Part shown: positions 1-62,555 of the stretch, piece by piece
Numbering within the stretch: the stretch's first letter is position 1
How the letters are laid out: the number at the start of each line of letters is the position of its first letter
Source of the DNA: Alphaproteobacteria bacterium UBA6376
GTDB lineage: Bacteria > Pseudomonadota > Alphaproteobacteria > Rs-D84
Assembly (NCBI GenBank): GCA_002437665.1
Contig: DJQW01000002.1
Coordinates: forward strand, 80,364-144,363
DNA length: 64,000 nt
Reading direction: 5' to 3'
The notes under the pieces: generated by a model
What the model was told of the DNA's origin: nothing
What the model saw: the letters and a program-made list of their open reading frames with translations, nothing else
Databases searched by the model: none
Program-made: the position numbers and the translations under genes

Positions 1-2121
1 CAATCTGATATAATTGCGCCCGTAGGACTTGCGCCGGCGTTATGGTTGCGGCTAGACATCTAATTCCAATCTGATATAATGTGCGACCATCAAGTTCACG
101 GACAAGATTCGTTGCGGCTAGACATCTAATTCCAATCTGATATAATGCATTAAAAATAAGGATAGAACATGATGAAGTTGCGGCTAGACATCTAATTCCA
201 ATCTGATATAATCCAGACGATAAAGTGGACGCGTTGAATGAGGTTGCGGCTAGACATCTAATTCCAATCTGATATAATTGAAATGATAAAACACGCGCCA
301 GCGGTCAAGTTGCGGCTAGACATCTAATTCCAATCTGATATAATGGCTGTGCCACGGCGTAACCAAAAGGAAAAGTTGCGGCTAGACATCTAATTCCAAT
401 CTGATATAATGATAGTAGACGAATACTATGAATAGGAGTAGTTGCGGCTAGACATCTAATTCCAATCTGATATAATCTGTTGGACCAGTACATTAAGATT
501 AAAACAGTTGCGGCTAGACATCTAATTCCAATCTGATATAATAAAAACGTGCACAATAGCACACATAAACCAGTTGCGGCTAGACATCTAATTCCAATCT
601 GATATAATAGAACATGAAAAAAACTTACAATGAAATAAGTTGCGGCTAGACATCTAATTCCAATCTGATATAATCAAGAGATAAAAGACAATGCCGCGAG
701 CATTGTTGCGGCTAGACATCTAATTCCAATCTGATATAATTGCAAGGCAATCAAAAATTCACTCACTGCGGTTGCGGCTAGACATCTAATTCCAATCTGA
801 TATAATCTTGATTTTCTTGATTAAATTTGAAATCAGTTGCGGCTAGACATCTAATTCCAATCTGATATAATTCAGGGTCTAAAATAGGGGCGCGCCATGC
901 TGTTGCGGCTAGACATCTAATTCCAATCTGATATAATTTGTTCAGGTTTGTTTGTAGCAAGTTTTTTGTTGCGGCTAGACATCTAATTCCAATCTGATAT
1001 AATAAATCTGAATAAATCCAGTGTCGCGGGGCTGTTGCGGCTAGACATCTAATTCCAATCTGATATAATGCCGAAACTTGGGCATCGCTGGTTATAAACG
1101 TTGCGGCTAGACATCTAATTCCAATCTGATATAATGTCTATCACTTGCAGGCGAACGACAGCACCGTTGCGGCTAGACATCTAATTCCAATCTGATATAA
1201 TTCAGCCGTCCGCCGCCTGCCCAGCGTTTCTGTTGCGGCTAGACATCTAATTCCAATCTGATATAATCCGCCCAGTTGGCGGAAATTGACGCAATAAGTT
1301 GCGGCTAGACATCTAATTCCAATCTGATATAATCAAGGTTTTGAAATCAGTTTTGTGTGTTTTGTTGCGGCTAGACATCTAATTCCAATCTGATATAATT
1401 ATTGGAAAGAAAATAAAGATAAAATAATAGTTGCGGCTAGACATCTAATTCCAATCTGATATAATTTAAAAAACTGATAAAAGAATCGGGCATTGTTGCG
1501 GCTAGACATCTAATTCCAATCTGATATAATGCTGAACTGCAGTATTTGACATGCGCTCCTGTTGCGGCTAGACATCTAATTCCAATCTGATATAATAACC
1601 AACGCAGACATTGAAAATGAAACTTCGTTGCGGCTAGACATCTAATTCCAATCTGATATAATAAAAACAGAGAACTGATAATACAACAAATAGTTGCGGC
1701 TAGACATCTAATTCCAATCTGATATAATTTCACGGAACTGTGAACGCGGCATAACATTGTTGCGGCTAGACATCTAATTCCAATCTGATATAATTGCCTT
1801 GCAGGCGGTGTACCCGACGCCGTGTTGCGGCTAGACATCTAATTCCAATCTGATATAATAATGCCTTTGTCAGTGCAACGTCTTTAATAGTTGCGGCTAG
1901 ACATCTAATTCCAATCTGATATAATTGTTTGTTTCACGTGTTTGTGCTGCTCCTGGTTGCGGCTAGACATCTAATTCCAATCTGATATAATCTACTTCTC
2001 AACTGCATTACCAGAACCGCGTTGCGGCTAGACATCTAATTCCAATCTGATATAATTCTGGGGGGGTGGCAATGGCGATTAAATGGTTGCGGCTAGACAT
2101 CTAATTCCAATCTGATATAAT
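1..2121 (+). CRISPR. CRISPR array: partial repeat at 1-14, then 32 complete 36-bp repeats (GTTGCGGCTAGACATCTAATTCCAATCTGATATAAT) at 45-80, 111-146 ... 2086-2121, separated by 29-30 bp unique spacers. The array continues beyond the window start.
   Basis: Exact 36-bp direct repeats with a ~66-bp period and unique 29-30-bp spacers were counted directly in the sequence. The repeat length, spacer length, adjacent cas9/cas1/cas2 and a matching tracrRNA anti-repeat indicate type II-C. Each repeat contains TAGACA-N16-TGATATAAT, an extended -10 promoter. Confidence 0.97.
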
Positions 2122-2136
2122 ACATATCAACAAAAT

Positions 2137-2163
2137 CCCCAGTTTTCTGGGGATTTTTGCTAC
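2137..2163 (+). terminator. Intrinsic terminator at the downstream end of the CRISPR array (AAAATCCCCAGTTTTCTGGGGATTTTTG).
   Basis: A GC-rich hairpin (CCCCAG/CTGGGG) followed by a T-run lies immediately after the last repeat and before the cas1 promoter. Confidence 0.7.
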
Positions 2164-2281
2164 ATAACAAAAAAATAAAACGCCCTATTCCACCAGTAAT
2201 ACGATTCGTTTTCTCTATTTTTTTCATCCTGTTGCACGCTACAAGTGTTGACAAAATAAAAAATCGTCCTATATATACAAC

Positions 2282-3181
2282 ATGCAAACAAATATTATAG
2301 AAATTTCTAGTGACAATCGCGAACTATCTGTTCGACGCGGCTTTTTGTGCATTAAAGAACACGGTTGTCTTATTGGCGAAGTACCGTTGGACAGCATATG
2401 TGCCATTATGACAACAGGACGCGCCATTATTTTTACACAAGCCATGATGGCAGCACTGTGCGAAAACGGGATTCCATTGGTCATTATAGGAAATAATTAT
2501 AACCCCATAGGCATAATGACGCCACTGGTTGGCCAAAATCGCCAAATGGCAGTGCAACACATTCAAATAAAAACATCACGGCCACTGGAAAAACAACTGT
2601 GGCGACGTATTGTCCAAGAAAAGATTCGCAACCAATCGCGGATACTGGACAAATACGGGAAAGACAACCGTATCAAACATATTCCTGCGGCTGTATTATC
2701 TGGCGACAGCAACAACATGGAAGGAGTTGCCGCCAGAATGTACTTTACCAGTTTATTCGACTCTGATTTTTTACGTGATCACAACGCCGGTGGAATCAAT
2801 GCGTTTTTAAATTATGGTTATGCCATTTTACGTGGTGCTATGGCACGTTTAGTTGTGGCCAGCGGTTTGAACCCATCATATGGTATAGAGCATCACAATC
2901 AAATGAACCCCATGTGTTTGGTTGATGATTTGATGGAGGTGTATCGCCCAATCATAGATGCAATCGTCTATGAAATATTCAACGGCACAGACAATCCTAA
3001 ACGTGAGCTGACGCCAGATGACAAACGAAAAATGTCTGCAGTATTAGAAATGAGCATCCCAACACGAGGCGGTGGAATTTCACCACTGTCCACAATAATG
3101 CAACGCGATGTATGGAACTTTGTAAATTCACTGAAAGAAAAGAAAAACAAATTGGATTTTGAAAATGTCATTAAAAACTGA
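2282..3181 (+). CDS. cas1: Cas1 integrase (type II).
   Basis: 299-aa ORF with a Cas1-like sequence and a conserved acidic/His region (...GIEHHNQMNPMCLVDDLMEVYRP...). It is adjacent to the array and cas2. A -35 TTGACA and a TATATA -10 lie upstream. Confidence 0.9.
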   Translation: MQTNIIEISSDNRELSVRRGFLCIKEHGCLIGEVPLDSICAIMTTGRAIIFTQAMMAALCENGIPLVIIGNNYNPIGIMTPLVGQNRQMAVQHIQIKTSRPLEKQLWRRIVQEKIRNQSRILDKYGKDNRIKHIPAAVLSGDSNNMEGVAARMYFTSLFDSDFLRDHNAGGINAFLNYGYAILRGAMARLVVASGLNPSYGIEHHNQMNPMCLVDDLMEVYRPIIDAIVYEIFNGTDNPKRELTPDDKRKMSAVLEMSIPTRGGGISPLSTIMQRDVWNFVNSLKEKKNKLDFENVIKN

Positions 3182-3503
3182 TGGACTAAAATACATGTGG
3201 ATGATGGTTATGTTTGATTTGCCGACAGATACGAAACGCGAACGTCGCGAGGCGTCCAAGTTTCGCAATTTTCTGCAAGATTTGGGCTTTTCAATGGCGC
3301 AATATTCGGTTTACATGCGTTTTACCGGCACACGCGAAAATTCACAAAAATATGTACATGCTGTAAAACGCAACAACCCACAAACAGGCGATGTAAACAT
3401 ATTGTTCTTCACTGACACGCAGTTCGGTGATATCATTCATCTGGACAAGGCAACTGCCCCAAGTGTATTAGCCACACGCCCAGGACAGTTACAATTATTT
3501 TAA
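3159..3503 (+). CDS. cas2: Cas2. The true start is possibly the ATG at 3195 (MWMMVMFDLP...).
   Basis: ~100-aa protein with the Cas2 N-terminal beta-strand motif (MVMFDLPTDTKRERR...). It overlaps the cas1 3' end, as is typical for a cas1-cas2 operon. Confidence 0.85.
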   Translation: MKMSLKTDGLKYMWMMVMFDLPTDTKRERREASKFRNFLQDLGFSMAQYSVYMRFTGTRENSQKYVHAVKRNNPQTGDVNILFFTDTQFGDIIHLDKATAPSVLATRPGQLQLF

Positions 3504-6500
3504 TCCCAATATTTTTCCAGACGGACTGACACAAACCTTGCGCGCTTTGTGTTCCTGTAACGATGTTGCGCTGGCAATCCATGATTTTGTATCAGCATCT
3601 TCCTTGGCAATGAAATGTGGACGCAGGTACACAGTGCCGCTGCTGTTCAATTTTTTTACACGAAAAACAACATTTACTTTATCTGTTTTCTCTATTGCAC
3701 ATTGATGTGCAACTGTTTCCACCAGCCCTTTTGGTAATTTTGGATCGTCTTTGGAAAATTCCGCCATTACCATATCATTTATACGCAAACTCATTATGCG
3801 CTTTGCTGTGGCATATTTATGACGCCACAGTGGTGCACCAGCATTTAATTGGGCGTTATAATTAGATAAAATCTCCACCTGCCAGCGACCACGCAATTTT
3901 GGATAGCGGGTATCATCATCACGAATTTCAAATATCTCTGCACAGAAATTATTACCACCAACATACCACTTGTACGCCTGCTTGGCAGCATCTTGAAATT
4001 CTTGCAACAAGTGTTTTTCTTTCTCTTGTTGAACAGCACGCAATTTTTTATCCACAATTCCACTGGCAACGCCAGTATTTACATACCAATTCAAATACGC
4101 GGCACGGTAAACGTCACGCTGTTTTTTAGTTCTGAACACAGGCACGTATGTCGTAACATCGACCCCCGTTTTATACATACGAACCTTGCGTATATTTCGC
4201 ATTGCACACCAATCCAAAAACTTGATTGCAATGTCTGGTTCTTCGTTTGCAACACCAGCATCATTCAAAAACATTTGCAGTGTTTTCGGATTCACATTTT
4301 TGAAATCCTTTGCAAACGCTTTTTTGTCTTTATCTGTTGTGGGCAGTTCTTCACGATGCGACATAACCGCATTGACGCCACATCCCCCATCTTCAAAACA
4401 TTCCAGATTATACGCCGTATCCTCATGCAAACATCCAACCGTACTATGTGCATCTTTCGGATTCTTTTGAGATTGACGGTATGAAATAATAGTATTCTCG
4501 CACCGCATTTTGAAATCAAAATAATCAAACCCAGGGAAAGGGGTATGCATATCAGATTTTGCATCAGCTAGTTTCCGCAATATGTTCTCATCAGTACAAG
4601 CAATGACAAAAGCATCAATCGCATGATGAATGTGATTGCCACGGTATTTGGATTCTTCCGCCTTATTCTTCCACCAATTCAAATGCCATTCATCGCGCAA
4701 ACTAGCCGTCAACCGCCCTGGCATACCGTTCACACGATTTTTGTCTGCACACACATGTTGTAAATATGTGACCGCCATACGTGTCATAAATCGCGTATCA
4801 TTCATTGCACGCGCAATGCACTCTTTGCCTTGCAGAAACACATCCATCGCCCCACGATTAAAACGCCATTTCGTAGCATCTGGCAAATTTTGAGCACGCG
4901 CAACCACATCCTCGTATTTCCATGGTGACTTTGGGTCTGAAAAAGCTTCATCTGGGCTACGGTTTCCTTTGAACCGGTTGGCAACGGCCGCAGAAATCGT
5001 TTTATTTGCCATCGAGTCATCAAGTGTACGTGAAAAAGGCAATATATGTTCTATTTCAAACTCTGGGCTAAACAGTTTTTCCTTACTAATTATCTCACCA
5101 GTATAAACGCATCTACGATCCAATGGACTTTTTCCCAAATTCTCCCACAACTTATATTTCTGTATATTTTCACGACAAACCCGAACGCCCATGGCGACCA
5201 ATTCAGTGGCAATACGGTCATTTTCACGCTTATTCGCGGCCTGTTGTTTTTCTATTTCTGCACGTTCATCTGCACCAGCTGATACATCACGCCCCATTTC
5301 AATATTTATTGCATATGGCTCGCCATCAAAACGCGCAATCAAATCGTTGACAACTGCGCGTAACTGGTTCAATGCAATGTGAACCGTGGCATTCATCGTA
5401 CGATAACGCCCCATCTTATCTTGAACCAACGATGGACGTAAAGCCATGACATCGCCATAGTATGGCAATGTATCTAAATGCACTATTCCCCTATCAGCAT
5501 GATCATAACCTGCTTCTTTTGCCGCAATGTGATACAAATGCCCCTGTTCCAAGAACGGCAACATTTTTTGCATTGCACACACAGACAAATTTGCAACCCC
5601 ATCTTCAAACGGTTGCTGAATTAATTTTTCTGCTTTATCTTGCGAAATACCATATTCATGCGCCAGATAATCCACCAAATCAGAATCGGACAATTCATCA
5701 TCATTCAGATGTGCCAAAACCTGCGATTTTACATTATCTGTACAAGCACGCCAGAAATCTGCCAATTCACATTCAGCAAATGCAAATGCCGTTGCATCAA
5801 CATCCATATCCTTACGCTTTTCAGATTCCAGATTAAATTTTGTATTACGTGATAAACCCAACAACTTCTTAACTTCCGCAAATGTTATCTTGGGACGCCC
5901 CGACTTATCACGTTTTACCCCACAAAATGTAGCCAGTAAAGCATCTTGCAACTTTTCGCGCTGTTCTGCGGTCAATTCCTTTATTTCGCCATTGTTGATA
6001 ATTCGTAATTGATTTATCTGTTGCAGAACACGAAAACGCTGAAACACAGGTTCAAATTTATACGCACGTGGCTGATCTAATTCAAACATGCACGTTCCAA
6101 TTTCTGGTGGCACCAACGGTCGCTGATGAAATATAGCATATTCAAACTGTTGCCGCATGTCATCTGACATATTTTGTACTGAACATATACGATTAAATTC
6201 GTCAAGGTACATATCACGCGTCGGATAAAGAGCACCATCTTTGATTTTATTACCATCAAATTGATCTGCAAACCGATAACGCTTTGAATCCACCTGAAAT
6301 TCACCCAAGGTTTTATCACCTATGGCATCATGCAATGCCAATGTCGCCTTTTTTAATTTGCCACCAGAATCCCCTCTGGTTTCCTTGCGATTACTTTTGA
6401 AACCACGGCGCAATGCCAGATGAAATAGAACACGCCCCAACTCTGCGGACGACAGTTTATCAGAAACCGCCCTTGCACGCAAAACATACGGATCTTCTAA

Positions 6501-6776
6501 TTTGATATCTGCACTAATATCGAAATCCAGACCATATTTATGAATCAATTGCAAGACACGCTTTTTACGTAGCAGTACGCGATCACCACGTCTGCGCATC
6601 TGACGATGTTCACGCCGAATAACATTAATTGGCTTGTGACTCTTCGCATCTCGCCCATCTGGGAATATACGCACCCCCATATCAACCAAACTCGTTATTT
6701 GGTCTGCTTCATTCAGTTCTACGACAGCCCACCCCAACGAGGTACTACCCAAATCCAAACCAATTTTATATTTCAT
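3495..6776 (-). CDS. cas9: Cas9 endonuclease, type II-C, 1093 aa. The RuvC and HNH motifs are intact.
   Basis: N-terminal RuvC-I motif IGLDLGSTSLGWAV (Asp8). HNH motif EIEHILPFSRTLDDSMANKTISAAVANRFKGNRSP. RuvC-III HHAIDA. The size is typical of compact II-C Cas9. No csn2 or cas4 is present. The stop codon overlaps the cas2 stop region by 9 bp (convergent). Confidence 0.95.
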   Translation of the reverse strand: MKYKIGLDLGSTSLGWAVVELNEADQITSLVDMGVRIFPDGRDAKSHKPINVIRREHRQMRRRGDRVLLRKKRVLQLIHKYGLDFDISADIKLEDPYVLRARAVSDKLSSAELGRVLFHLALRRGFKSNRKETRGDSGGKLKKATLALHDAIGDKTLGEFQVDSKRYRFADQFDGNKIKDGALYPTRDMYLDEFNRICSVQNMSDDMRQQFEYAIFHQRPLVPPEIGTCMFELDQPRAYKFEPVFQRFRVLQQINQLRIINNGEIKELTAEQREKLQDALLATFCGVKRDKSGRPKITFAEVKKLLGLSRNTKFNLESEKRKDMDVDATAFAFAECELADFWRACTDNVKSQVLAHLNDDELSDSDLVDYLAHEYGISQDKAEKLIQQPFEDGVANLSVCAMQKMLPFLEQGHLYHIAAKEAGYDHADRGIVHLDTLPYYGDVMALRPSLVQDKMGRYRTMNATVHIALNQLRAVVNDLIARFDGEPYAINIEMGRDVSAGADERAEIEKQQAANKRENDRIATELVAMGVRVCRENIQKYKLWENLGKSPLDRRCVYTGEIISKEKLFSPEFEIEHILPFSRTLDDSMANKTISAAVANRFKGNRSPDEAFSDPKSPWKYEDVVARAQNLPDATKWRFNRGAMDVFLQGKECIARAMNDTRFMTRMAVTYLQHVCADKNRVNGMPGRLTASLRDEWHLNWWKNKAEESKYRGNHIHHAIDAFVIACTDENILRKLADAKSDMHTPFPGFDYFDFKMRCENTIISYRQSQKNPKDAHSTVGCLHEDTAYNLECFEDGGCGVNAVMSHREELPTTDKDKKAFAKDFKNVNPKTLQMFLNDAGVANEEPDIAIKFLDWCAMRNIRKVRMYKTGVDVTTYVPVFRTKKQRDVYRAAYLNWYVNTGVASGIVDKKLRAVQQEKEKHLLQEFQDAAKQAYKWYVGGNNFCAEIFEIRDDDTRYPKLRGRWQVEILSNYNAQLNAGAPLWRHKYATAKRIMSLRINDMVMAEFSKDDPKLPKGLVETVAHQCAIEKTDKVNVVFRVKKLNSSGTVYLRPHFIAKEDADTKSWIASATSLQEHKARKVCVSPSGKILGLK

Positions 6777-6836
6777 AACTGTTTCCTTTCATCTCGTCAT
6801 AAATTCTACAAAATCAATATCTGAAAAGCAAATTAT

Positions 6837-6864
6837 TTGACTTATTATATTAGGACGCTATAAT
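6837..6864 (+). promoter_or_regulatory. Promoter for the tracrRNA (TTGACT-N16-TATAAT).
   Basis: Near-consensus sigma70 hexamers lie directly upstream of the anti-repeat-containing transcript. Confidence 0.6.
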
Positions 6865-6870
6865 TATGGT

Positions 6871-6990
6871 GGTGAAAGAAAATAACACTAAAATCAAGTT
6901 GGAATTAGATGTCTAGTCGTTAATAAGAACCTCTTGCAAGAGAGGAGATTTCACCATTAAAAACGGACACTTCGGTGTCCGTTTATTTTA
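6871..6990 (+). ncRNA. tracrRNA: tracrRNA: anti-repeat at 6899-6923, nexus-like hairpin at 6930-6945, and an intrinsic terminator hairpin at 6958-6989.
   Basis: TTGGAATTAGATGTCTAGTCGTTAA is complementary (one G:U wobble) to the first 20-25 nt of the CRISPR repeat. It is followed by CCTCTTGCAAGAGAGG and AAAACGGACACTTCGGTGTCCGTTTATTTT. It is divergent from cas9. The 5' end is approximate. Confidence 0.85.
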
Positions 6991-6999
6991 CAAAAAATC

Positions 7000-7023
7000 A
7001 CCCCGCGGTGCGGGGTGTTTTTC
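7000..7023. terminator. Bidirectional terminator hairpin (CACCCCGCGGTGCGGGGTG) shared by the tracrRNA and the convergent autotransporter gene.
   Basis: The palindrome is flanked by A-runs upstream and T-runs downstream. Confidence 0.6.
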
Positions 7024-10000
7024 TTAGAAGCGGTATGATCCGGAAACCTTGATATTATGCAGTTGAATATCTTGGTTATACTGGTAACGGTAATCCAGAC
7101 CAATCTGCAAGCCACTGGCCGACAGCATTTCTACGCCACCGCCGATGTTCGCCCACATTGGATCGATATCAATATCATACTTTGTGAACGAATTTGCGAC
7201 CGAGAATTTATATTTCGCGTTGTCTGGCGCGCCCAACACATCGTATTCGATTCCGATTGTCGCATATGGGCGAATCTGGAACCATGCCGATGGATAGATA
7301 CGCTTTTGCGCGGTCAACGAATACCCAGGTGTAAAGATCAGATACCCGTCGGATTCCATGTCCATATAATCGTGGCCACGGGCCTTTTCCGTCAGCGAGA
7401 ATCCAAAGTTATACCCAACGCGCGCATACATATTGCCAACAACATACTGGTTCAGCCAATCATGCAGCAAGCCCCATTCACTGGTGAATGCAACGTCATA
7501 GCCCGTACCATCAATCGCGCCATTTATATATGTCTGGTGACGTGTGGTATCCAACACATGGATGTCCAAGAACGCATTACCATAAACGCGTGTTTTTTCG
7601 CCCAATGTCTGCATCAAATAACCACCCAGACCGATGTTGGTATCTGCAACCTTGACATCAACATTGCCGGCGATGAACGGATTTTCAACGGTATAGCCCA
7701 AATTCATAGAATCCGAGTTGTCCGCCGACATGTGCGATATACGCCCTGTCAACCCCAGAATCAAAGTTTCAGAATGCTGCCAGTCAAATCCACCCGCGAC
7801 GTTGATACGGTTACCATCAACGCGTTTGCCATCGGACACTTTCTGGTTGAACATACCAAATTCCGCATCAACCCATGCCTTTTTCAGGTTGCGGTTACGA
7901 TTCCAGATAAATTCGTCAAACATGCGGTCTTCGAATGAACGGAAATTAGTGTGTTCATTCAAGACAATGCTGCCCACGACCTGTTCGATTTCACGTGGCT
8001 GAACCAAGCGGCTGAAACGTGACAACGCCGTACCATCGCGATTCGTATTATAATCTTCCATACGCTTGTACAGTTCGTTGCCCAACTGTTCCAGATTTGT
8101 GCCACGGAATATCACAGGCAACATTTCCAGCGCATGACGACCATAAAATCCCTTGCCAGCGGCCGCGCCATCCAACATGTCGTCCAACGCGCCTGCGGAC
8201 ATATATTCGCCACTGGTGTGCCCTGGGGTGCGGCCAACAATCGGCTGAATCTTGAACACCTCTACCGGCCCACCAAAGCGTGGATCAAACACCAAATAGA
8301 TACTGTCGTCAATACCATCACCGTCGGTATCACGCACGGTCAGGTATGCAGAATCCGCATCAACCAGCGCACCGCTGAAATAGTCATAACACATCGTGCC
8401 CGTATTGTTGCACACAACAACGTTCAGATTGCGCAGTTTATCGCCCAATTCTGTGATGCCATCGTCTGCATGTACCAGCCAAATTGCATCGCCCACCGTT
8501 GCCAATTCACGCAACGCAACACCAATCTGATCGGTCGCATTTGCAAACCCAGTCGATGGATTACGCGACAGCGTCAAATCAGATGTGAACGCACCATCAA
8601 CCTGAATCAATGCACCCGCATTGCCGTCTGTGGCGTTTGTGATGCGCCCCAGCGTGTTATCGTCCGCCAAACTGACCGATGACCAGTAATTGCGTGTTGG
8701 TGCGGTCAGCACATCACGACGTCTGACATCAACGTACAGGCCACTGTCGTTATCAAACAGATAGTTGCCACCAATCGTCATTTCTTGCAAGCCACCAAAG
8801 CGCGCGCCGCCAGAAACATTACCGGTAACGCCCACGGTCAGGCCCGCGTTTGAATACACACGCATGTTTTTGACGTCAATATTACCCGCAACCGTCAGGT
8901 CAGTCGTATTGATGTCCAGCGCACCCGATGTTTGCTGAATATTACCGCCCACAATCACATTAGACGCAGACAGTGCATAACTGTCGCCGGTGATATTTGC
9001 ATCACGCACCGCGATTGTCCCAGCATAATTCTGGTACAAGTTTTTGACTGTAAATGCACCCGCAGATTTCATACCCGCGCCCGACAATGTTGCCGTGCCA
9101 TTATTGGCAAAGTAATCAACATTTGCCACATCCGCGCCCGATGCAATCGTCAAATCGCCATCATTGTCAACCGCACCCAGTGTCATACCACGTGCCGCAT
9201 TCAGTGTCAAAGTACCCTTGTTTGAAATGCCCCCAAATGCGATGCTGGAATTTTCAGACGAAATCGACGTTGTCGCGCCCGCCGCAACATTCGCCGCGCC
9301 GGTAAATGCGACCGCGTTTTTAACGTCGTATGCAACCGTACCGGTGTCGGCCATCAACGCGCCAGTGGCTGTCAAACTGCCCGCGGTGACGTTTGTGTTG
9401 CCAACAATGCTCAGCCCAGATGCCGCCGCACCTGCAACGTCAGATGCGTGTGTTATGTTACCCGCAACAGAAATCAAATCATCAGACGTGATTGTTGGCG
9501 CATTGATAACCGCACTGCCCCCCGACACGGTCAGCATCGCCATATTCAATTTTTCCGCCGAAATATTCAGTTTCAGATTTGATTCAATCGCACCCGCGGT
9601 AATAGAATCCGCCGCAACCAAATTCAATGTGCCGGTATTGTCAATCTGGCCAATGGTCAGGTCAGACGCACTGTTGATATTGGCGTTACCACTGCTGGCC
9701 AATGCGCCCATATCAATGGTTGCGCCGTTGATTGTCAATGTGCCGCCGTTGCTGGTCTGGCCACCGATTTTAGCGGTGCCCACCGCATCAATTTTAACCG
9801 TGCCATTGGTCGCCAACGCGCCATCCATTGTGAAATCTTGGTGTGACGTCAATGTCAACGTTTTACCATTGGCGATTGTCACGCTGTCAAAAGACATGCC
9901 CCCCACGCTGGTTTCCATGGTGTATTCGTTGCCACTGATAACCATTCCGGTCATCCCCCATGTCGGCGTCGCATCGTTAAACAACAATTCGCCACCAACA

Positions 10001-12129
10001 CTGATATCGCCAGTTGTTGCGGTCAATGATTTCCCAGACAAAACAATCAAACCATTCGTTGTGCCGCGATTCGTCAGTGATGCAACATTTGCATTCGCCG
10101 CCGCAATTTCCAGCCATGCGCCATTGGTTGCCGATGCCGCACCCGCAACATTCAGCGTCTGGCCCGCTGCACGCGATGCATCCGCCGAACCAAATATCAA
10201 ACGCTGGTTTGCATTTGTCGCCAACGCATCACCACCAATGTCCATCAACGACGCGTCCATACGCACCGTACGTGCAGTTGTATCGGTAACGCGAACGTCC
10301 CCGCCAATATTGATTATGCCGTTATTTGATTTCAACACAAACGCCGTTGTTCCGTCCGCCGCAACCGACATGTCGCCCGCATTTGCCGCGGCACTGCCAC
10401 TGGCGATAAAGTTACCATCAATTTGTACCGAATTTTCAACAGTCAGGTTTTTAACCGCACTGCGCAAACTCAATTTACCGCCAGACACAATCATTTTGTC
10501 CAGAATTTGAATATTGCCAATCAGTGCGTTCATTTCAACCGAACCGCCCAATACGTTCAAATTCTTGGCCGAAATATTGTCGCTGGCATTGCCCGAACCA
10601 ATAACCGTCATCGCGCCGGCATTATTTGTCAAATCGCCGCCAATCGTGATATTACGCGCCGTGATGTCCAAGACCCCTTGGTCACCCGCCGACGTGCCGT
10701 TCACAACGTTACCATCAACCGTCAGCGCACCACTGGACGACGCAGATGCCGCCACACGTAAATCACCAGTGTTCGTAACACTTGCCACATTTACTGTATT
10801 ACCGTCGATGCGCATTTTACTGCCATTTGTGTTGGAAACGTCGCCCCCAACAAACGCGCCACCCGCCGCAATCGTTGCATTTGCGTCCGCACCATCACCA
10901 GAAATCGCCCCTGTTGTAATACTCAGACCACGAATTTCCAACGTGCCCGTATTGCGAATCGATGTTGATGTGAAATTACCCGCACTGTTCAATGTCAATC
11001 CGGCAATACCGCCTTGCGGCAAAATCGACGCATTAGAAATCGCACCAAACGACATATCGCCCAGCGTCGTTTCAATGGTCGCCATACCCTGTTTCAGCAA
11101 GATATCGCCCGTCATCTGCAAAGAACCGGTTTTCAACGTGAATTTACCGCTGTCGGTCATATTGCTCCAATCAATATTCTGGGCAATTTTGGTCAGGCCC
11201 GAAATATTCGCAACAAACACACCACTGTTGACGATGGACGCGTTCTGGCCGTTACCACCATTGATGGTCAAACTGTCACCATTGATGTTCATTGTCCCAG
11301 AAGTATCTTCGTTTGTAATTGCGCCTGCAATCGTAATGTCCTTTGCCGACACAGTAACCGTACCTGCGGCCTTGTTTTCCAAACTGCCCGTGGTGTCGGT
11401 ATTGGTCAACGTCAAATTGCCACCCACCGTTACGTTCAGCGAACCCGCAGAATTTTGAATTGTGCCCGATGTAATATCGCCACCCGCTGTAATCTTGCCA
11501 GTGCTGTTCGCATTCTTGTATGTGAACTGCTTCATAGTAATAGAATCAGTTGCATCCAAATTGACGTCAGCATTTGCCCCCGTGGCATTTACATCAATCG
11601 CACCGGTATTGATGGTATTTGCAATGATGCGCAAAGTGTCGTTTGCATTTATCGCACCCGACGTAAATGAATCGATACCACCACCGGCAACACCACTGTT
11701 TGCCGCCACGCTCAGCGCGCCCAGCGCATTTATCGTGCCACCAATCGACACATCCATGCCCGCCGCCGTGCCGTTCTGAATGCCCAGCGTCATGCCAGAT
11801 TTAATTTCCAGATTATTACCAATGACAACATCGCCATCGGACTGGATGGTGAAAGACCCCGTATCGCGCAAAATTGCCAAATCGCCGTTACCGCCCTGAC
11901 CCGTGCCACCAACATAAACCGCGCCCGCGACATTCAAACCATTTGTCGTTGCCCCATCGCCCAAGACCAAACTGGTGTCCGTTGCGTCAATCGTTTTACT
12001 GGCATCGGTTGCGCCGATATTCAGCCCATCTGCAAACGTGGCCGCGCCCGCACCAAAAGGCATCAAGCAACATACAACAGATACTAATTTTTTTGAAAAC
12101 AGAGACATCTTTCTTTCCATTCCTTGCAA
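7024..12129 (-). CDS. Large autotransporter (type Va secretion) with a Gly/Thr/Asn/Ser-rich beta-helical passenger domain and a C-terminal beta-barrel translocator ending ...SGSYRF.
   Basis: N-terminal signal peptide, ~1300 aa of repetitive G/T/N/S/A-rich passenger sequence, and a C-terminal ~300-aa region with alternating aromatic/hydrophobic strands and a terminal Phe. Confidence 0.8.
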   Translation of the reverse strand: MQGMERKMSLFSKKLVSVVCCLMPFGAGAATFADGLNIGATDASKTIDATDTSLVLGDGATTNGLNVAGAVYVGGTGQGGNGDLAILRDTGSFTIQSDGDVVIGNNLEIKSGMTLGIQNGTAAGMDVSIGGTINALGALSVAANSGVAGGGIDSFTSGAINANDTLRIIANTINTGAIDVNATGANADVNLDATDSITMKQFTYKNANSTGKITAGGDITSGTIQNSAGSLNVTVGGNLTLTNTDTTGSLENKAAGTVTVSAKDITIAGAITNEDTSGTMNINGDSLTINGGNGQNASIVNSGVFVANISGLTKIAQNIDWSNMTDSGKFTLKTGSLQMTGDILLKQGMATIETTLGDMSFGAISNASILPQGGIAGLTLNSAGNFTSTSIRNTGTLEIRGLSITTGAISGDGADANATIAAGGAFVGGDVSNTNGSKMRIDGNTVNVASVTNTGDLRVAASASSSGALTVDGNVVNGTSAGDQGVLDITARNITIGGDLTNNAGAMTVIGSGNASDNISAKNLNVLGGSVEMNALIGNIQILDKMIVSGGKLSLRSAVKNLTVENSVQIDGNFIASGSAAANAGDMSVAADGTTAFVLKSNNGIINIGGDVRVTDTTARTVRMDASLMDIGGDALATNANQRLIFGSADASRAAGQTLNVAGAASATNGAWLEIAAANANVASLTNRGTTNGLIVLSGKSLTATTGDISVGGELLFNDATPTWGMTGMVISGNEYTMETSVGGMSFDSVTIANGKTLTLTSHQDFTMDGALATNGTVKIDAVGTAKIGGQTSNGGTLTINGATIDMGALASSGNANINSASDLTIGQIDNTGTLNLVAADSITAGAIESNLKLNISAEKLNMAMLTVSGGSAVINAPTITSDDLISVAGNITHASDVAGAAASGLSIVGNTNVTAGSLTATGALMADTGTVAYDVKNAVAFTGAANVAAGATTSISSENSSIAFGGISNKGTLTLNAARGMTLGAVDNDGDLTIASGADVANVDYFANNGTATLSGAGMKSAGAFTVKNLYQNYAGTIAVRDANITGDSYALSASNVIVGGNIQQTSGALDINTTDLTVAGNIDVKNMRVYSNAGLTVGVTGNVSGGARFGGLQEMTIGGNYLFDNDSGLYVDVRRRDVLTAPTRNYWSSVSLADDNTLGRITNATDGNAGALIQVDGAFTSDLTLSRNPSTGFANATDQIGVALRELATVGDAIWLVHADDGITELGDKLRNLNVVVCNNTGTMCYDYFSGALVDADSAYLTVRDTDGDGIDDSIYLVFDPRFGGPVEVFKIQPIVGRTPGHTSGEYMSAGALDDMLDGAAAGKGFYGRHALEMLPVIFRGTNLEQLGNELYKRMEDYNTNRDGTALSRFSRLVQPREIEQVVGSIVLNEHTNFRSFEDRMFDEFIWNRNRNLKKAWVDAEFGMFNQKVSDGKRVDGNRINVAGGFDWQHSETLILGLTGRISHMSADNSDSMNLGYTVENPFIAGNVDVKVADTNIGLGGYLMQTLGEKTRVYGNAFLDIHVLDTTRHQTYINGAIDGTGYDVAFTSEWGLLHDWLNQYVVGNMYARVGYNFGFSLTEKARGHDYMDMESDGYLIFTPGYSLTAQKRIYPSAWFQIRPYATIGIEYDVLGAPDNAKYKFSVANSFTKYDIDIDPMWANIGGGVEMLSASGLQIGLDYRYQYNQDIQLHNIKVSGSYRF

Positions 12130-12147: not shown

Positions 12148-13476
<1,329 letters not shown>

Positions 13477-13536
13477 TTTACTAGAAATGTAACAAACGGG
13501 GGGCGAAATCGTGCGCCCCCTTTTTTCTGAGGCCCA

Positions 13537-13743
13537 ATGATAACAACGCACCAAATTTTTATTATTGCCAAATACGCAATCGCAGTATTGCTGGCCATTG
13601 GCATATTCTTGGCCCCCGCATGGATTGCGCGCCAAACGGCACGGGGCAAGCAAGATATGATTCTGGTTCGCTTGGGCAGTTGGGTATTCAGTTGGACTGG
13701 CATCGGATGGCTGTGGGCATTATTCTGGGCCAGCAAGAAATAA
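13537..13743 (+). CDS. Small inner-membrane protein resembling the superinfection-immunity (Imm) family.
   Basis: 68 aa with two TM helices and a C-terminal ...WTGIGWLWALFWA motif, similar to the PF14373-type consensus (WT.IGW...ALIWA). An SD (GAGG) is present. Confidence 0.45.
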   Translation: MITTHQIFIIAKYAIAVLLAIGIFLAPAWIARQTARGKQDMILVRLGSWVFSWTGIGWLWALFWASKK

Positions 13744-26360: not shown

Positions 26361-26518
26361 GATACCTTTCCCTTGTGTACGTTTTTTGTTTTATTTCTGG
26401 CGAAATCATACCGCGATTTTTAATCCAAGGCAAGATTATACTTACTTTTAATATTGACAAAATTTACATTTTGTATTATACTATGTTCCCCAATATGAAG
26501 TTCAGAGAGGTATCGATT

Positions 26519-28455: not shown

Positions 28456-28622
28456 TTTTGCTTTTCCCCTTGCCTTTGATACAACAGGCATACCATAAAC
28501 CAAAAAGGCCGCACTCGCAACACGATTTTTTGACTTTTTTGCACAGATTTTGCCCAACCCCCTACGCCGCAAACACTTGACAAAATATTTTTCTGGGCTA
28601 TATTATCAGTACGGGTGATTAC

Positions 28623-35321: not shown

Positions 35322-35540
35322 GATTTTTTCCTTTTTCTGTTGTTATCCTCGTCGTGGACGCCATACCAGATTTTATTGCAAACCCAGACAGAAAATAGCC
35401 CAACGACTGTGTTCTTCACGCTTGCACGTGTACCCCGATACTAAACCAAACACCCATAAAAATCAAGCACAAATTGACAAAAATGAATAAATTCAAATAT
35501 AAAATCACAGGTTGACAAAAATATTTTATGTGTCTACAAT

Positions 35541-37376
35541 TTGCATATGAATTTATGGCGACGCATTTTGACCGCAACCGTAATTATTGGAATATCAACT
35601 GGAAATTCCATGGCGGCACGCGATTGCACCAATCCGACATATCGCCACAATAATCCCGATGAATGCAGTATGTTTTTTGGCGGCGGTGTTGCACTGATTG
35701 GCACATCCACAATCGCGGCCAGTGCCGTTGCGCTGGTTGGTCTGTCGTTGGGTGGCGGCGGTGGTTCTGTGCACAGCAGCACCCCAAACGCAACATACGT
35801 CCAGCCCACACGCAGCATATATAATTATGTCGGTGGCGACATTGATGCAGCGCATCTGGCCGGTATTCGCCAAGAAACCGTATACCAGCGCAATCTGGAT
35901 CAGTACAACACCATTCGTCTGGCATGGTCATTGGCACGCGGTTTTACCGGTCGTGGCACAGAAATTGCCGTACTGGACGCCGGCCCCGACACATGGCACG
36001 GCAAAACGGTTGCATCATTCGCATCTGGCGCGGTTGCACCAAACGCCACCGTCCGCGAATATAAAATCACAGACGCCAATATGGACTTTATACCATTTTC
36101 AGAAATTGGTGATGTTATTGCCCATGCCCACACCGCGGATGTATATAATGCCAGTTGGTCTGTTGAAATGCGCGCAACCCAGTTGAAATCGCGCCATCAA
36201 CTGATGCAACTGACCGATGCCAATTTTGTAAATCAAATATCAGATGCCGCAACCCAGCGCGACGCGATTTTCGTATGGGCGGCGGGCAATGACGGCAGCA
36301 GTCAATCCAGTGCGCTGTCCGCCCTGCCCGTTGTTATGCCGGAATTGGACGGTCACTTTATAAATGTTGTTGCATATGATGATGCGACCGGCGCATTGGC
36401 CGATTACAGTAATGCATGCGGCATCACGATGAATTGGTGCATAACCGCCCCTGGGACACTCAGTACCGGCAAAACCATTGCCGCGGGGACAAGTTTCGCC
36501 GCCCCAATCGTATCGGCGGCAATCGCCGTATTGCGCGAGGCATTTCCATACATGACCGCATCGCAAATTACGTCGCTGTTGTTTGAAACCGCGCGTGATT
36601 TGGGCGCAGATGGCGTCGACCCAATCTATGGCCACGGCATGTTGGATTTGGAACGCGCAACCCGCCCTGTGGGCGCGGAATTGATTCCGTTGGACAATGG
36701 CGCAACGCAACCTCTGTCCACCGCGCGCGCATCGGGCCAGATTGCCCATAAAATCAAAAGTGCAAATCCGAAATTCGCATTTGTTGACGCATACGGGCGC
36801 GCATTTAACACCGATTTAGGCAAAAATATATCTGTTCAAAACCCATCAATCGGTTGGCAACACCTGCGCAGCAATAATATTGCGGCATTTCGTACCGGCA
36901 ATATTGAATTTGGACTGCGCGAAATGGACATTTTACCAACAGATGGCGCACTGGGTACAAACAACCGCAATTTAATCAGTTTTATTGGTACAACCAACAC
37001 GTGGGATTGGAATAATATCGAACTGTTCCAGACGTCCACAATCGGTTTTGCCCGCGCCCAGACGAATGAAAATTCACTGATGACCGCGACATCCGACATC
37101 ACAACCGCATCGGTTGCATTTGGCGCAAATATTGGCGAATTTACATTTGCCGCCGCAATCCCAGACACCGTGATTGGCGGGAATATGACATTGCGCCTGC
37201 CGACGGGACGCGCGGCGGGTGGCGAAATAATCTTTAATGATTACACCATTGATTTGGTAGCGCGCCCATCGGTTGAATTTACAGGAAAATACAAGTTCCT
37301 GACCGTTGGTTTTGTCGATAACCCATACGGCACAGACGAACTGTTTGTCGTAGGCAAATGGAAACTGGAATTTTAA
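35541..37376 (+). CDS. Secreted subtilisin-like serine peptidase (S8) with a C-terminal ~250-aa beta-rich extension ending in Phe. This may be an autotransporter-like or outer-membrane anchor.
   Basis: Signal peptide. Catalytic triad contexts AVLDAG (Asp), HGK/HGT (His), GTSFAAPIVSAAIAVL (Ser). Promoter TTGACA-N17-TACAAT upstream. Confidence 0.8.
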   Translation: MHMNLWRRILTATVIIGISTGNSMAARDCTNPTYRHNNPDECSMFFGGGVALIGTSTIAASAVALVGLSLGGGGGSVHSSTPNATYVQPTRSIYNYVGGDIDAAHLAGIRQETVYQRNLDQYNTIRLAWSLARGFTGRGTEIAVLDAGPDTWHGKTVASFASGAVAPNATVREYKITDANMDFIPFSEIGDVIAHAHTADVYNASWSVEMRATQLKSRHQLMQLTDANFVNQISDAATQRDAIFVWAAGNDGSSQSSALSALPVVMPELDGHFINVVAYDDATGALADYSNACGITMNWCITAPGTLSTGKTIAAGTSFAAPIVSAAIAVLREAFPYMTASQITSLLFETARDLGADGVDPIYGHGMLDLERATRPVGAELIPLDNGATQPLSTARASGQIAHKIKSANPKFAFVDAYGRAFNTDLGKNISVQNPSIGWQHLRSNNIAAFRTGNIEFGLREMDILPTDGALGTNNRNLISFIGTTNTWDWNNIELFQTSTIGFARAQTNENSLMTATSDITTASVAFGANIGEFTFAAAIPDTVIGGNMTLRLPTGRAAGGEIIFNDYTIDLVARPSVEFTGKYKFLTVGFVDNPYGTDELFVVGKWKLEF

Positions 37377-62394: not shown

Positions 62395-62555
62395 AAAATA
62401 TCCTTTTAATTTCTCTGAATTATACCACAAAAAATCCGATTCGCGAATTTATACATCTGATATATAGGTAAATATGTCCAAAATACAACCAAACAGCAAC
62501 TTATTGACAAAAACCATTTTGTGTACTATATTATCAGAAAACAAAGGCACATATT

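Follow-up and report, generated by a model that had tools for sequence, protein, structure and literature searches.

At its left end, the window (the whole stretch of 64,000 nucleotides analysed here, from Alphaproteobacteria bacterium UBA6376) carries a CRISPR array, followed by cas1, cas2, cas9 and a tracrRNA. We assign the locus to type II-C CRISPR-Cas9, with the array as the source of the crRNAs; the host is an uncultured alphaproteobacterium of the gut. Its features, in window coordinates, are:

1..2121, + strand: CRISPR array, a 14-nt repeat tail and then 32 spacers alternating with 32 identical 36-bp repeats
2086..2121, + strand: the last, cas1-proximal repeat, with TAGACA at 2094-2099, the extended -10 TGATATAAT at 2113-2121 and a predicted transcription start near 2128
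2122..2126, + strand: ACATA directly 3' of the last repeat, its ACA invariant in the clade alignment
2132..2157, + strand: hairpin AAAATCCCCAG-TTTT-CTGGGGATTTT, then a T-rich stretch; an intrinsic terminator before cas1 that reads as a terminator on the - strand too
2202..2208, + strand: CGATTCG motif in the region between array and cas1, present in 9/10 clade sequences (TGATTCG in L042)
2248..2275, + strand: cas1 promoter, TTGACA at 2248-2253, 16 nt, TATATA at 2270-2275
2282..3181, + strand: cas1 of the type II class (TIGR03639 cas1_NMENI, E 9e-69)
3159..3503, + strand: cas2 (TIGR01573, E 3e-20)
3495..6776, - strand: cas9 of the type II-C class, 1093 aa (TIGR01865, 521 bits), convergent with cas1-cas2
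6837..6864, + strand: tracrRNA promoter, TTGACT, 16 nt, TATAAT
6871..6989, + strand: tracrRNA of ~119 nt: anti-repeat (6894-6924), AAG, nexus-like hairpin (6930-6945), terminator hairpin (6963-6982) and T-run

The repeat GTTGCGGCTAGACATCTAATTCCAATCTGATATAAT occurs in 32 exact copies, the first starting at position 45 and the last occupying 2086-2121. The spacers comprise 27 of 30 nt and five of 29 nt, and a recount places the first of them at 15-44. The left edge of the window is formed by the last 14 nt of another repeat copy, CAATCTGATATAAT, so the array extends past this edge. A scan of positions 1-7200 against Rfam (E up to 1) found neither a CRISPR-DR nor a tracrRNA family; its four matches were weak and fell short of the gathering score, which leaves the repeat unplaced in any curated RNA family.

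Cas9 contains the domains HNH_4, RuvC_III and Cas9_a, and its catalytic positions RuvC D8 and HNH H577 are invariant in our alignment. The best matches among solved structures are several Cas9 chains of ~1080-1095 aa (E 1e-64 to 1e-68). Entry 6jdq, which we take to be NmeCas9, matches with E 2.5e-52 (hmmer) over the N-terminal two-thirds of the window protein, and the two are distant relatives only. The best match in the protein database, P0001, is 94% identical, and the nearest loci in the genome collection, L001 and L002, are 77-78% identical. The contig encoding the 94%-identical Cas9 (L081) ends 189 bp past cas1 and thus does not reach an array with which spacer turnover within the species might be compared. 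The cas set consists of cas9, cas1 and cas2 only, with no csn2 or cas4 in the window, which ends within the array on the other side; the neighbours are a 1701-aa ORF without a family match and an enolase gene. The locus thus combines the traits of type II-C: a compact Cas9 of 1093 aa, cas9, cas1 and cas2 as the only cas genes, a tracrRNA with an anti-repeat and an array antisense to cas9. In the window's clade, cas1-cas2 are inverted, which breaks the canonical type II-C gene order while leaving the cas genes downstream of the array. As a result of this inversion, the array fires co-directionally toward cas1. The 3' ends of cas2 and cas9 overlap by 9 nt (3495-3503).

The strand that gives rise to the crRNAs can be read from the tracrRNA. 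Its anti-repeat (6894-6924) is the sole significant match to the repeat outside the array and forms a duplex of -41 kcal/mol with the + strand repeat RNA. In L003 and L004, a G-to-C change in the anti-repeat matches a C8-to-G change in the repeat. The tracrRNA fold has a z of -4.9, its terminator stem shows compensatory changes among clade loci, and promoter, nexus hairpin and terminator are all kept in the clade, with the -35 TTGAC of the promoter invariant in the 9/9 loci compared and its -10 TATAAT present in 7/9. Judged from these sequence elements, the crRNA strand is the + strand. Since the tracrRNA pairs with the + strand repeat transcript, the repeat promoters point the right way. With cas9 on the - strand, the array is antisense to it, as it is in all 58/58 related loci for which an array was found.

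If the array were instead read on the - strand, the promoter-like elements would point in the wrong direction and would be irrelevant. The hairpin at the array end and the terminator hairpin of the tracrRNA are T-rich on both sides and could terminate transcripts in either direction, which leaves room for such a reading, but the order of promoter, anti-repeat, AAUAAG, nexus hairpin and terminator in the tracrRNA is canonical on the + strand only, and this RNA pairs only with + repeat RNA. The repeat also starts with GTTG, as published type II-C repeats do in the crRNA sense (PMC4607530). The flank motif described below lies 3' of the protospacers in + orientation, with the mismatches of spacer 17 at that same end, and the promoter scan of the array listed no match of 10/12 or better on its - strand. 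We find transcription of the array from the - strand hardly credible.

Within the repeat, TAGACA at positions 9-14 agrees with TTGACA in 5/6 positions. It is followed, after a promoter spacer of 16 nt, by a perfect TATAAT (6/6) at positions 31-36, with a TG at 28-29. Measured against TTGACA-N16-TATAAT, 32/32 full repeat copies match at 11/12 positions and carry the TG; the first of them shows the same geometry at 53-80. The 36-bp repeat with TAGACA, 16 nt and a TGaTATAAT end, as reported in the first-pass annotation, is therefore confirmed in all 32 full copies. Of the at least 33 tandem promoters counted there, 32 are complete and the 33rd has only its -10 inside the window. The same annotation had proposed that each repeat holds a near-consensus promoter, with the crRNA starting in the downstream spacer as in Nme and Cje; all sequence tests that we ran support this reading, with a promoter of the sigma70 type, and the choice of the + strand and the parallel with type II-C were borne out. 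The 36-nt repeat ends, with TGATATAAT at 28-36, in the sigma70 -10 box by which type II-C repeats have been defined (gnTAnaaT at the 3' end; PMC4607530). From the position of the -10, transcription is predicted to start ~7 nt into each 29-30-nt spacer. Adjacent repeat promoters are 65-66 bp apart, closer than the footprint of RNA polymerase, and hence would not all be occupied simultaneously.

Could the match have arisen by chance in a repeat end rich in A and T, or have been inherited without still being in use? The copies are identical, so that the 32 matches amount to one event and the effective sample for a chance calculation is a single 36-mer. For a random 36-mer, the probability of a site of at least 11/12 lies between ~5e-5 (window composition) and 2e-4 (repeat composition), and at ~1e-5 if the TG is included. 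The remaining 62 kb, taken on both strands, yield just six different sites that reach 11/12. A TG is absent from all of them (0/6), and each of the six immediately precedes either the tracrRNA or an ORF on the + strand. Strong consensus matches elsewhere in the window therefore sit where promoters are expected, which supports reading the repeat elements as putative promoters too. In some related repeats, notably those from Cloacimonadota, the corresponding hexamer does match the -10 poorly (2-4 of 6), as a coincidence or relic might predict; nevertheless, TA.A.T is kept across 50 diverged repeats and in decaying first repeats. On balance, chance or disuse is a very unlikely explanation.

The 50 distinct related repeats have their high-information columns at positions 1-3 and 5, at 9 and 11-13 (T.GAC) and at 31, 32, 34 and 36 (TA.A.T). 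TA.A.T (31-36) is the most conserved block of the repeat 3' half, and TAnnnT is found in 38/50. Among the last six positions, 33 is under the weakest constraint (42% T), in agreement with the usual profile of a sigma70 -10. This Cas9 clade also conserves the -35-like T.GAC (positions 9-14), together with its fixed 16-nt spacing. In related arrays, 28 first (cas-distal) repeats are degenerate; 125/127 of their mismatches fall in positions 1-27 and only 2/127 in 28-36. In the window's own repeat family, first-repeat decay amounts to 36 mismatches in positions 1-22 and 0 in 23-36. No degenerate cas-proximal repeats were flagged in related arrays; the degenerate copy is always at the distal end. 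This 5'-to-3' gradient could partly reflect the outer half of a terminal repeat escaping homogenisation, without any promoter constraint. The -35-like hexamer of the degenerate first repeats has 31 mismatches over its 6 positions. As it lies in the part that pairs with the tracrRNA and is mutated in many first repeats, it may not act as a promoter element. The idea that the -10 lies outside the repeat:anti-repeat duplex was rejected, because complementarity extends to repeat position 33 in L003, L004, L005 and L009; the window anti-repeat is complementary to position ~31, with a mismatch (alignment). Given that the -10 overlaps the duplex, the argument rests on sequence-specific conservation and not on an absence of pairing.

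Past the last repeat, ACATA at 2122..2126 may anchor the leader at the end where spacers are acquired, by analogy with the type II-C acquisition model (PMC12080349, PMC12477760), and the CGATTCG motif is possibly a leader element. The hairpin at 2132-2157 has a folding energy of -16.4 kcal/mol (z -4.7), which 0/200 shuffles equalled. It is present in 9/9 clade loci, with changes on both sides of the stem at two pairs, and most related loci have a stable hairpin within the first 60 nt past the last repeat. In the cas1 promoter, TTGACAAA is invariant in 10/10 clade sequences and the -10 region varies at one or two positions. The cas1 ATG at 2282 follows only 7 nt after the -10, a distance that is kept in the clade, which suggests that the cas1 mRNA is probably leaderless. 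The earlier description of the array as firing toward cas1 has the direction right, but it is incomplete, as a conserved terminator intervenes and cas1 has a conserved promoter of its own. Because both are conserved, array read-through is disfavoured as the main source of cas1 expression.

The spacers give a view of the acquisition end. Spacers 30-32 match viral contigs perfectly, the only ones to do so among seven spacers tested, and the older spacers 16-18 match the same viral contig with 3-5 mismatches. This pattern, with perfect matches proximal to cas1 and mismatched ones in spacers 16-18, agrees with addition of new spacers at the last repeat, as does the distal position of the degenerate repeat in relatives, but it rests on few spacers. 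For spacers 1, 2, 28 and 29, IMG/VR contains no exact match. A blastn search with the complete array as query, run against 50,697 deposited phage genomes, found no protospacers, only AT-rich chance matches to Staphylococcus phages with E of at least 0.2, and no spacers are common to the window and any clade array. Read on the + strand, an A/purine-rich motif lies 3' of six protospacers, the 5' flanks of which show no pattern. The mismatches of spacer 17 cluster at the flank-motif end. We tentatively assign a purine/A-rich PAM on the 3' side. Through its spacer matches, the host can be connected with a gut microvirus and with a 35-kb viral contig.

Conservation of the repeat 3' end may serve integration, besides or in place of transcription, for this is the leader-proximal end, where Cas1-Cas2 should act. 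Taken further, TGaTATAAT would be kept mainly as a recognition signal for Cas1-Cas2, and a promoter before the array, outside the window, would produce a single long pre-crRNA, to be cut with the help of tracrRNA and RNase III and trimmed at its 5' end, as in type II-A. The -10-like block does adjoin the presumed leader with its conserved ACATA, perfect viral matches were seen for the three cas1-proximal spacers only, out of seven tested, the array begins beyond the left edge of the window, and type II-C spacers are reported to enter at the last repeat (PMC12080349). A pure integration signal sits less well with the pattern of conservation, which is that of a sigma70 -10 (T, A, variable, A, a, T) in repeats with wholly different leaders, or with the first repeat, which is far from the acquisition end and still keeps positions 28-36 (the 2/127 mismatches above). 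Just upstream of their arrays, the relatives L001 and L003 have terminator-like hairpins and not promoters, in line with type II-C arrays generally (PMC12080349), and the homologous repeats of Cje and Nme are experimentally proven promoters. We consider a long pre-crRNA with a repeat end kept mainly for Cas1-Cas2 to be improbable. The roles of the repeat 3' end as integrase signal and as promoter are compatible and not mutually exclusive.

Direct observation covers the sequence elements, conservation among relatives, the strand of the crRNAs and the type of locus. On this basis, we propose as the probable course of events that repeat-embedded promoters start each crRNA in the next spacer, that transcripts terminate before cas1 and that acquisition takes place at the last repeat. 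Promoter activity, start site, processing and acquisition end would here follow homologous systems that have been studied experimentally. Housekeeping sigma70 RNA polymerase would bind every repeat through the extended -10 TGaTATAAT and the -35-like TAGACA 16 nt upstream. Transcription would start ~6-8 nt into the next spacer, giving primary crRNA 5' ends and guides of ~22-25 nt. The + strand transcripts would traverse downstream repeats, with the first ~24-31 nt of each repeat pairing with the tracrRNA anti-repeat, and the crRNA 3' end may be set by RNase III or by simple termination. Transcripts leaving the array would stop at the hairpin at 2132-2157, before cas1, and new spacers would enter at the last, cas1-proximal repeat. 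An additional external promoter may lie upstream of the array, outside the window.

Repeat-embedded promoters are a documented hallmark of type II-C arrays (PMC3656092, PMC4607530, PMC12080349) and do not constitute a new mechanism. The window extends the known type II-C rule, by which each crRNA has its promoter in the repeat before it, to a lineage of uncultured gut Alphaproteobacteria, and it does so with an unusually clean example that combines a perfect extended -10 with 5/6 at the -35 position. Less ordinary are the clade-conserved T.GAC at fixed 16-nt spacing and the cas1-cas2 inversion with an intervening conserved terminator. This clade-specific placement of cas1-cas2 behind array and terminator is the only potentially new lesson and provides a natural test of whether array transcription influences expression of the adaptation genes. 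One could speculate that, in an Alphaproteobacteria-centred Cas9 clade, the repeat forms a complete two-element sigma70 promoter, in which T.GAC (9-14) and TA.A.T (31-36) are both functional, as opposed to the -10 alone so far. In the window's sub-clade, where the inversion puts cas1-cas2 behind dozens of tandem crRNA promoters that point the same way, read-through of 2132-2157 could then couple cas1-cas2 expression to the length or transcription of the array, and the overlap with cas9 at 3495-3503 could add antisense control. We offer this combined scenario as a long shot. On the practical side, the crRNA strand, the tracrRNA, a likely guide of ~23-24 nt and the tentative PAM are the prerequisites for trying the 1093-aa Cas9 as a tool.

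How does the locus compare with known type II-C systems? The first-pass annotation had called the repeat unrelated to those of Nme and Cje. This is wrong: aligned without gaps, the window repeat agrees with that of Nme at 21/36 positions and with that of Cje at 18/36, and the three repeats have length, start and end in common (36 nt, GTTG..GCT at the start and TGnTAnAAT at the end). The 36-nt repeat of Nme and N. lactamica, GTTGTAGCTCCCTTTCTCATTTCGCAGTGCTACAAT, from which the first of these counts derives, differs from the window repeat at positions 9-14, where it reads TCCCTT in place of a TAGACA at 16-nt spacing. Zhang et al. 2013 reportedly described the Nme repeat with an extended -10 only. 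Nme spacers are presumably 30 nt long, like those of the window, and we assume that its guide RNA likewise has AAUAAG after the tracrRNA anti-repeat. The gene order in Nme, which we take to be cas9, cas1, cas2 and then a convergent array, differs from that of the window, in which cas1-cas2 are inverted and co-directional with the array. Common to both systems are a crRNA antisense to cas9 and a leader at the transcriptionally downstream end. Nme crRNAs originate from repeat-embedded promoters and start at about the 6th-7th spacer nucleotide (PMC12477760, PMC5965381).

In C. jejuni, the repeats end in the extended -10-like box GGTAAAAT, and dRNA-seq has mapped primary starts to position 5 of each spacer (PMC3656092). 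The C. jejuni repeat GTTTTAGTCCCTTTTTAAATTTCTTTATGGTAAAAT, also 36 nt long and 18/36 identical to that of the window without gaps, has CCCTTT at positions 9-14 and, unlike the window repeat, no -35-like element. Its Cas9 is, with 984 aa, smaller than the 1093-aa protein of the window, and its tracrRNA adjoins the array (PMC4607530), whereas the window tracrRNA is divergent from cas9. Across type II-C repeats, Pearson et al. 2015 predicted the gnTAnaaT sigma70 box at the 3' end, and they described a convergent array orientation and a degenerate transcription-proximal repeat (PMC4607530). Among the alphaproteobacterial repeats listed there, that of Dinoroseobacter shibae, GTTGCGGCTGGACCCCGAATTCTGAACAGCTAAACT (PMC4607530), has 25/36 positions identical to the window repeat (counted by eye). 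Both repeats have a GTTGCGGCT.GAC start and a TAnAnT end. Where D. shibae has TAAACT and TGGACC, the window repeat shows TGnTATAAT without a mismatch and agrees with the -35 consensus at 5/6 positions, and, unlike D. shibae, its host belongs to an uncultured gut lineage.

The CRISPR locus is a type II-C system, with neither csn2 nor cas4 present. The array goes on leftward beyond the window, since the final 14 nt of another repeat copy open it; the first full copy lies at position 45, the last at 2086-2121, and the spacers are 29-30 nt long.

Features of the locus (coordinates, strand, description)
1-2121, +, CRISPR array, 32 exact copies of the 36-bp repeat GTTGCGGCTAGACATCTAATTCCAATCTGATATAAT
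2132-2157, +, hairpin after the array (-16.4 kcal/mol, z -4.7)
2282-3181, +, cas1
3159-3503, +, cas2
6776-3495, -, cas9 (1093 aa)
Upstream of cas9, +, tracrRNA transcription unit, divergent from cas9
6837-6864, +, tracrRNA promoter TTGACT-16-TATAAT
6894-6924, +, anti-repeat of 31 nt, then AAG
6930-6945, +, nexus-like hairpin of the tracrRNA
6963-6989, +, tracrRNA hairpin and T-run

Cas9 matches solved Cas9 chains of ~1080-1095 aa at E 1e-64 to 1e-68, and structure entry 6jdq, which we take to be NmeCas9, at E 2.5e-52. The protein collection has no exact match; its best, P0001, is 94% identical. Among related loci in the genome collection (L-numbers), L001 and L002 are nearest (77-78%), followed by L003-L009 and L042 (59-65%). 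These ten belong to metagenome-assembled genomes (MAGs) of the gut that bear the labels Alphaproteobacteria, 'Rickettsiales' or Candidatus Enterousia; their sources are the guts of sheep, goat and roe deer, and MAG collections of the human gut. Adjoining the tracrRNA is a 1701-aa ORF (7024-12129, - strand) with no Pfam or NCBIfam match and a 1694-aa counterpart at the same place in L081; a strong hairpin terminator on its strand follows it (6999-7017).

Each repeat has the promoter-like layout that the first-pass annotation claimed for it. TAGACA at repeat positions 9-14 agrees with TTGACA at 5/6 positions and is separated by 16 nt from TATAAT at positions 31-36, with TG at 28-29. The promoter score is 11/12 with TG in 32/32 copies, although these are identical and therefore statistically a single event. 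In a random 36-mer, a site of at least 11/12 is expected with a chance of 5e-5 to 2e-4, or ~1e-5 with TG. The rest of the window (62 kb, both strands) contains only six distinct sites of this quality, none of them bearing TG, and all six lie directly upstream of the tracrRNA or a + strand ORF. Those ahead of ORFs match TTGACA-N16-18-TATAAT, all on the + strand, at 13448-13477, 26454-26482, 28577-28604, 35512-35540 and 62504-62532; the ORFs are those at 13537, 26483/26495, 28623, 35547 and 62556. Taken with the conserved cas1 promoter, which is of the same type, their position at gene starts indicates that such a match predicts a real promoter here, and the classical consensus is highly predictive in this genome.

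Extraction of arrays from 80 related loci gave 50 distinct repeats of 36 nt, read here in crRNA orientation. Information content is high in columns 1-3 and 5 (GTT.C), 9 and 11-13 (T.GAC), and 31, 32, 34 and 36 (TA.A.T). The third position of the sigma70 -10 element is usually its least constrained, and the final six repeat positions agree with this profile (T 98%, A 84%, T 42%, A 86%, A 70%, T 94%). Of the 50 repeats, 38 have TAnnnT, 30 match the -10 at 5/6 or better and 21 carry TG at positions 28-29. A hexamer matching TTGACA at 5/6 or better occupies positions 9-14 in 39 of the 50 repeats of this Cas9 clade, always 16 nt ahead of the -10 position. However, this hexamer lies within the stretch that pairs with the tracrRNA, and decaying first repeats frequently carry mutations in it, which makes it a tentative candidate for a promoter element.

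Where relatives have complete arrays, the cas-distal repeat, the first one as the crRNA is read, has often degenerated; no degenerate cas-proximal repeat was flagged among the related arrays. In 28 degenerate first repeats, 125 of 127 mismatches fall in positions 1-27 and two in 28-36, and in the window's own repeat family all 36 of 36 fall in positions 1-22. Retention of the 3' half is expected if the first repeat need not make a crRNA any more yet must drive spacer 1. This is supportive but not decisive, since terminal repeats of many CRISPR types are prone to erosion in their outer half. The same argument from first-repeat decay has been made in PMC12080349. L004 and L008 carry remnants resembling older, eroded repeats beyond the degenerate first repeat, upstream in crRNA sense, of which just the 3' part is kept (CCCAATCTGATATAAT in L004, AAATCTGATATGAT in L008). 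Terminator-like hairpins stand right upstream of the arrays in L001 and L003, as reported for type II-C generally (PMC12080349).

The tracrRNA bears out the claimed direction, from the -10 at the repeat 3' end into the next spacer. The anti-repeat is the sole significant repeat complement outside the array and would form a duplex of -41 kcal/mol with + strand repeat RNA, so the crRNA is read on the + strand. The unit folds with z -4.9 and is kept in nine related loci, its terminator stem showing compensatory changes. In L003 and L004, a G-to-C change in the anti-repeat pairs with a C8-to-G change in the repeat. Elements, strand and conservation are observed features of these loci.

Six protospacers in two IMG/VR contigs have an A/purine-rich motif at the 3' side in crRNA orientation (GAAAAC, AAAAAG, TGAATT, GAAAAT, CAGATT, GAAAAC) and no pattern in their 5' flanks, which suggests a purine/A-rich PAM. 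The three cas1-proximal spacers (1926-1955, 1992-2020, 2057-2085) match these contigs (L082, L083) perfectly. Two target a 5.6-kb microvirus with genes for a replication initiator, a DNA pilot protein and a major capsid protein; the remaining one targets a 34.9-kb viral contig, as do older spacers 16-18 with 3-5 mismatches.

The best-supported account, with promoter activity, start site and processing inferred from homologous systems, is that sigma70 RNA polymerase would start at each repeat ~7 nt past the -10, at about spacer position 6-8, leaving a guide of ~23-24 nt. Transcripts would continue into downstream units, and the tracrRNA would pair with each repeat, the 3' end being set by RNase III or the transcript end. 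Those exiting the array, including that of the last repeat (start near 2128), would run into the hairpin at 2132-2157. This hairpin is found in every clade member, with two pairs changed on both sides, and most related type II-C loci have a stable hairpin within the first 60 nt past the last repeat.

Array promoters were also said to fire toward cas1. The co-directional arrangement holds by gene order, but a terminator stands between array and cas1. Only the window's sub-clade (window, L001-L009, L042 and L081; Cas9 at least 59% identical) has the cas1-cas2 inversion: cas9 is forward, and cas2, cas1 and the array follow in the opposite direction, so that array promoters point co-directionally toward cas1. 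All more distant relatives have the order cas9, cas1, cas2 with a convergent array. The cas9/cas2 tail-to-tail overlap of 9 nt, with overlapping stop codons, leaves no room for a terminator, and both units are thus transcribed convergently into each other. Within 2248-2284, the conserved cas1 promoter TTGACA-16-TATATA has a -10 ending 6 nt before the ATG, and the cas1 mRNA is probably leaderless. Within 35512-35549, a strong promoter, TTGACA-17-TACAAT, ends 6 nt before the ATG at 35547; together, the two suggest that this organism uses leaderless mRNAs. ACATA (2122-2126), right after the last repeat, and CGATTCG (2202-2208), ~80 nt further on, are clade-conserved in an otherwise variable spacer region and could serve as leader elements when spacers are integrated.

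Zhang et al. reportedly described the N. meningitidis repeat in 2013 as lacking a -35. The other papers cited here mention the -10 alone. The mechanism of repeat-embedded promoters is already established. In C. jejuni, where the repeats terminate in GGTAAAAT, dRNA-seq and primer extension placed starts at spacer position 5 (PMC3656092), and in N. meningitidis such promoters make crRNAs that begin with the 6th nucleotide of the spacer (PMC5965381, PMC12477760). Pearson et al. 2015 described type II-C repeats from different phyla as carrying a gnTAnaaT box at their 3' end, together with convergent array orientation and a degenerate transcription-proximal repeat (PMC4607530). Besides the array that follows cas2, the related locus L068 has a second one (8682-9301) with the Campylobacter-like repeat GTTTTAGTCCCCTTCTAAATTCGGGGCTGCTTTAAT, ~700 bp upstream of its cas9.

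Taken together, the earlier interpretation is correct in essence, but what it describes was known before; the modest residual interest lies in the clade-specific locus architecture. One subsidiary claim, that the repeat is unrelated to those of N. meningitidis and C. jejuni, is wrong: ungapped identity is 21/36 and 18/36, respectively, with ends and length in common, and reaches 25/36 by our own count with the published Dinoroseobacter shibae repeat (PMC4607530).
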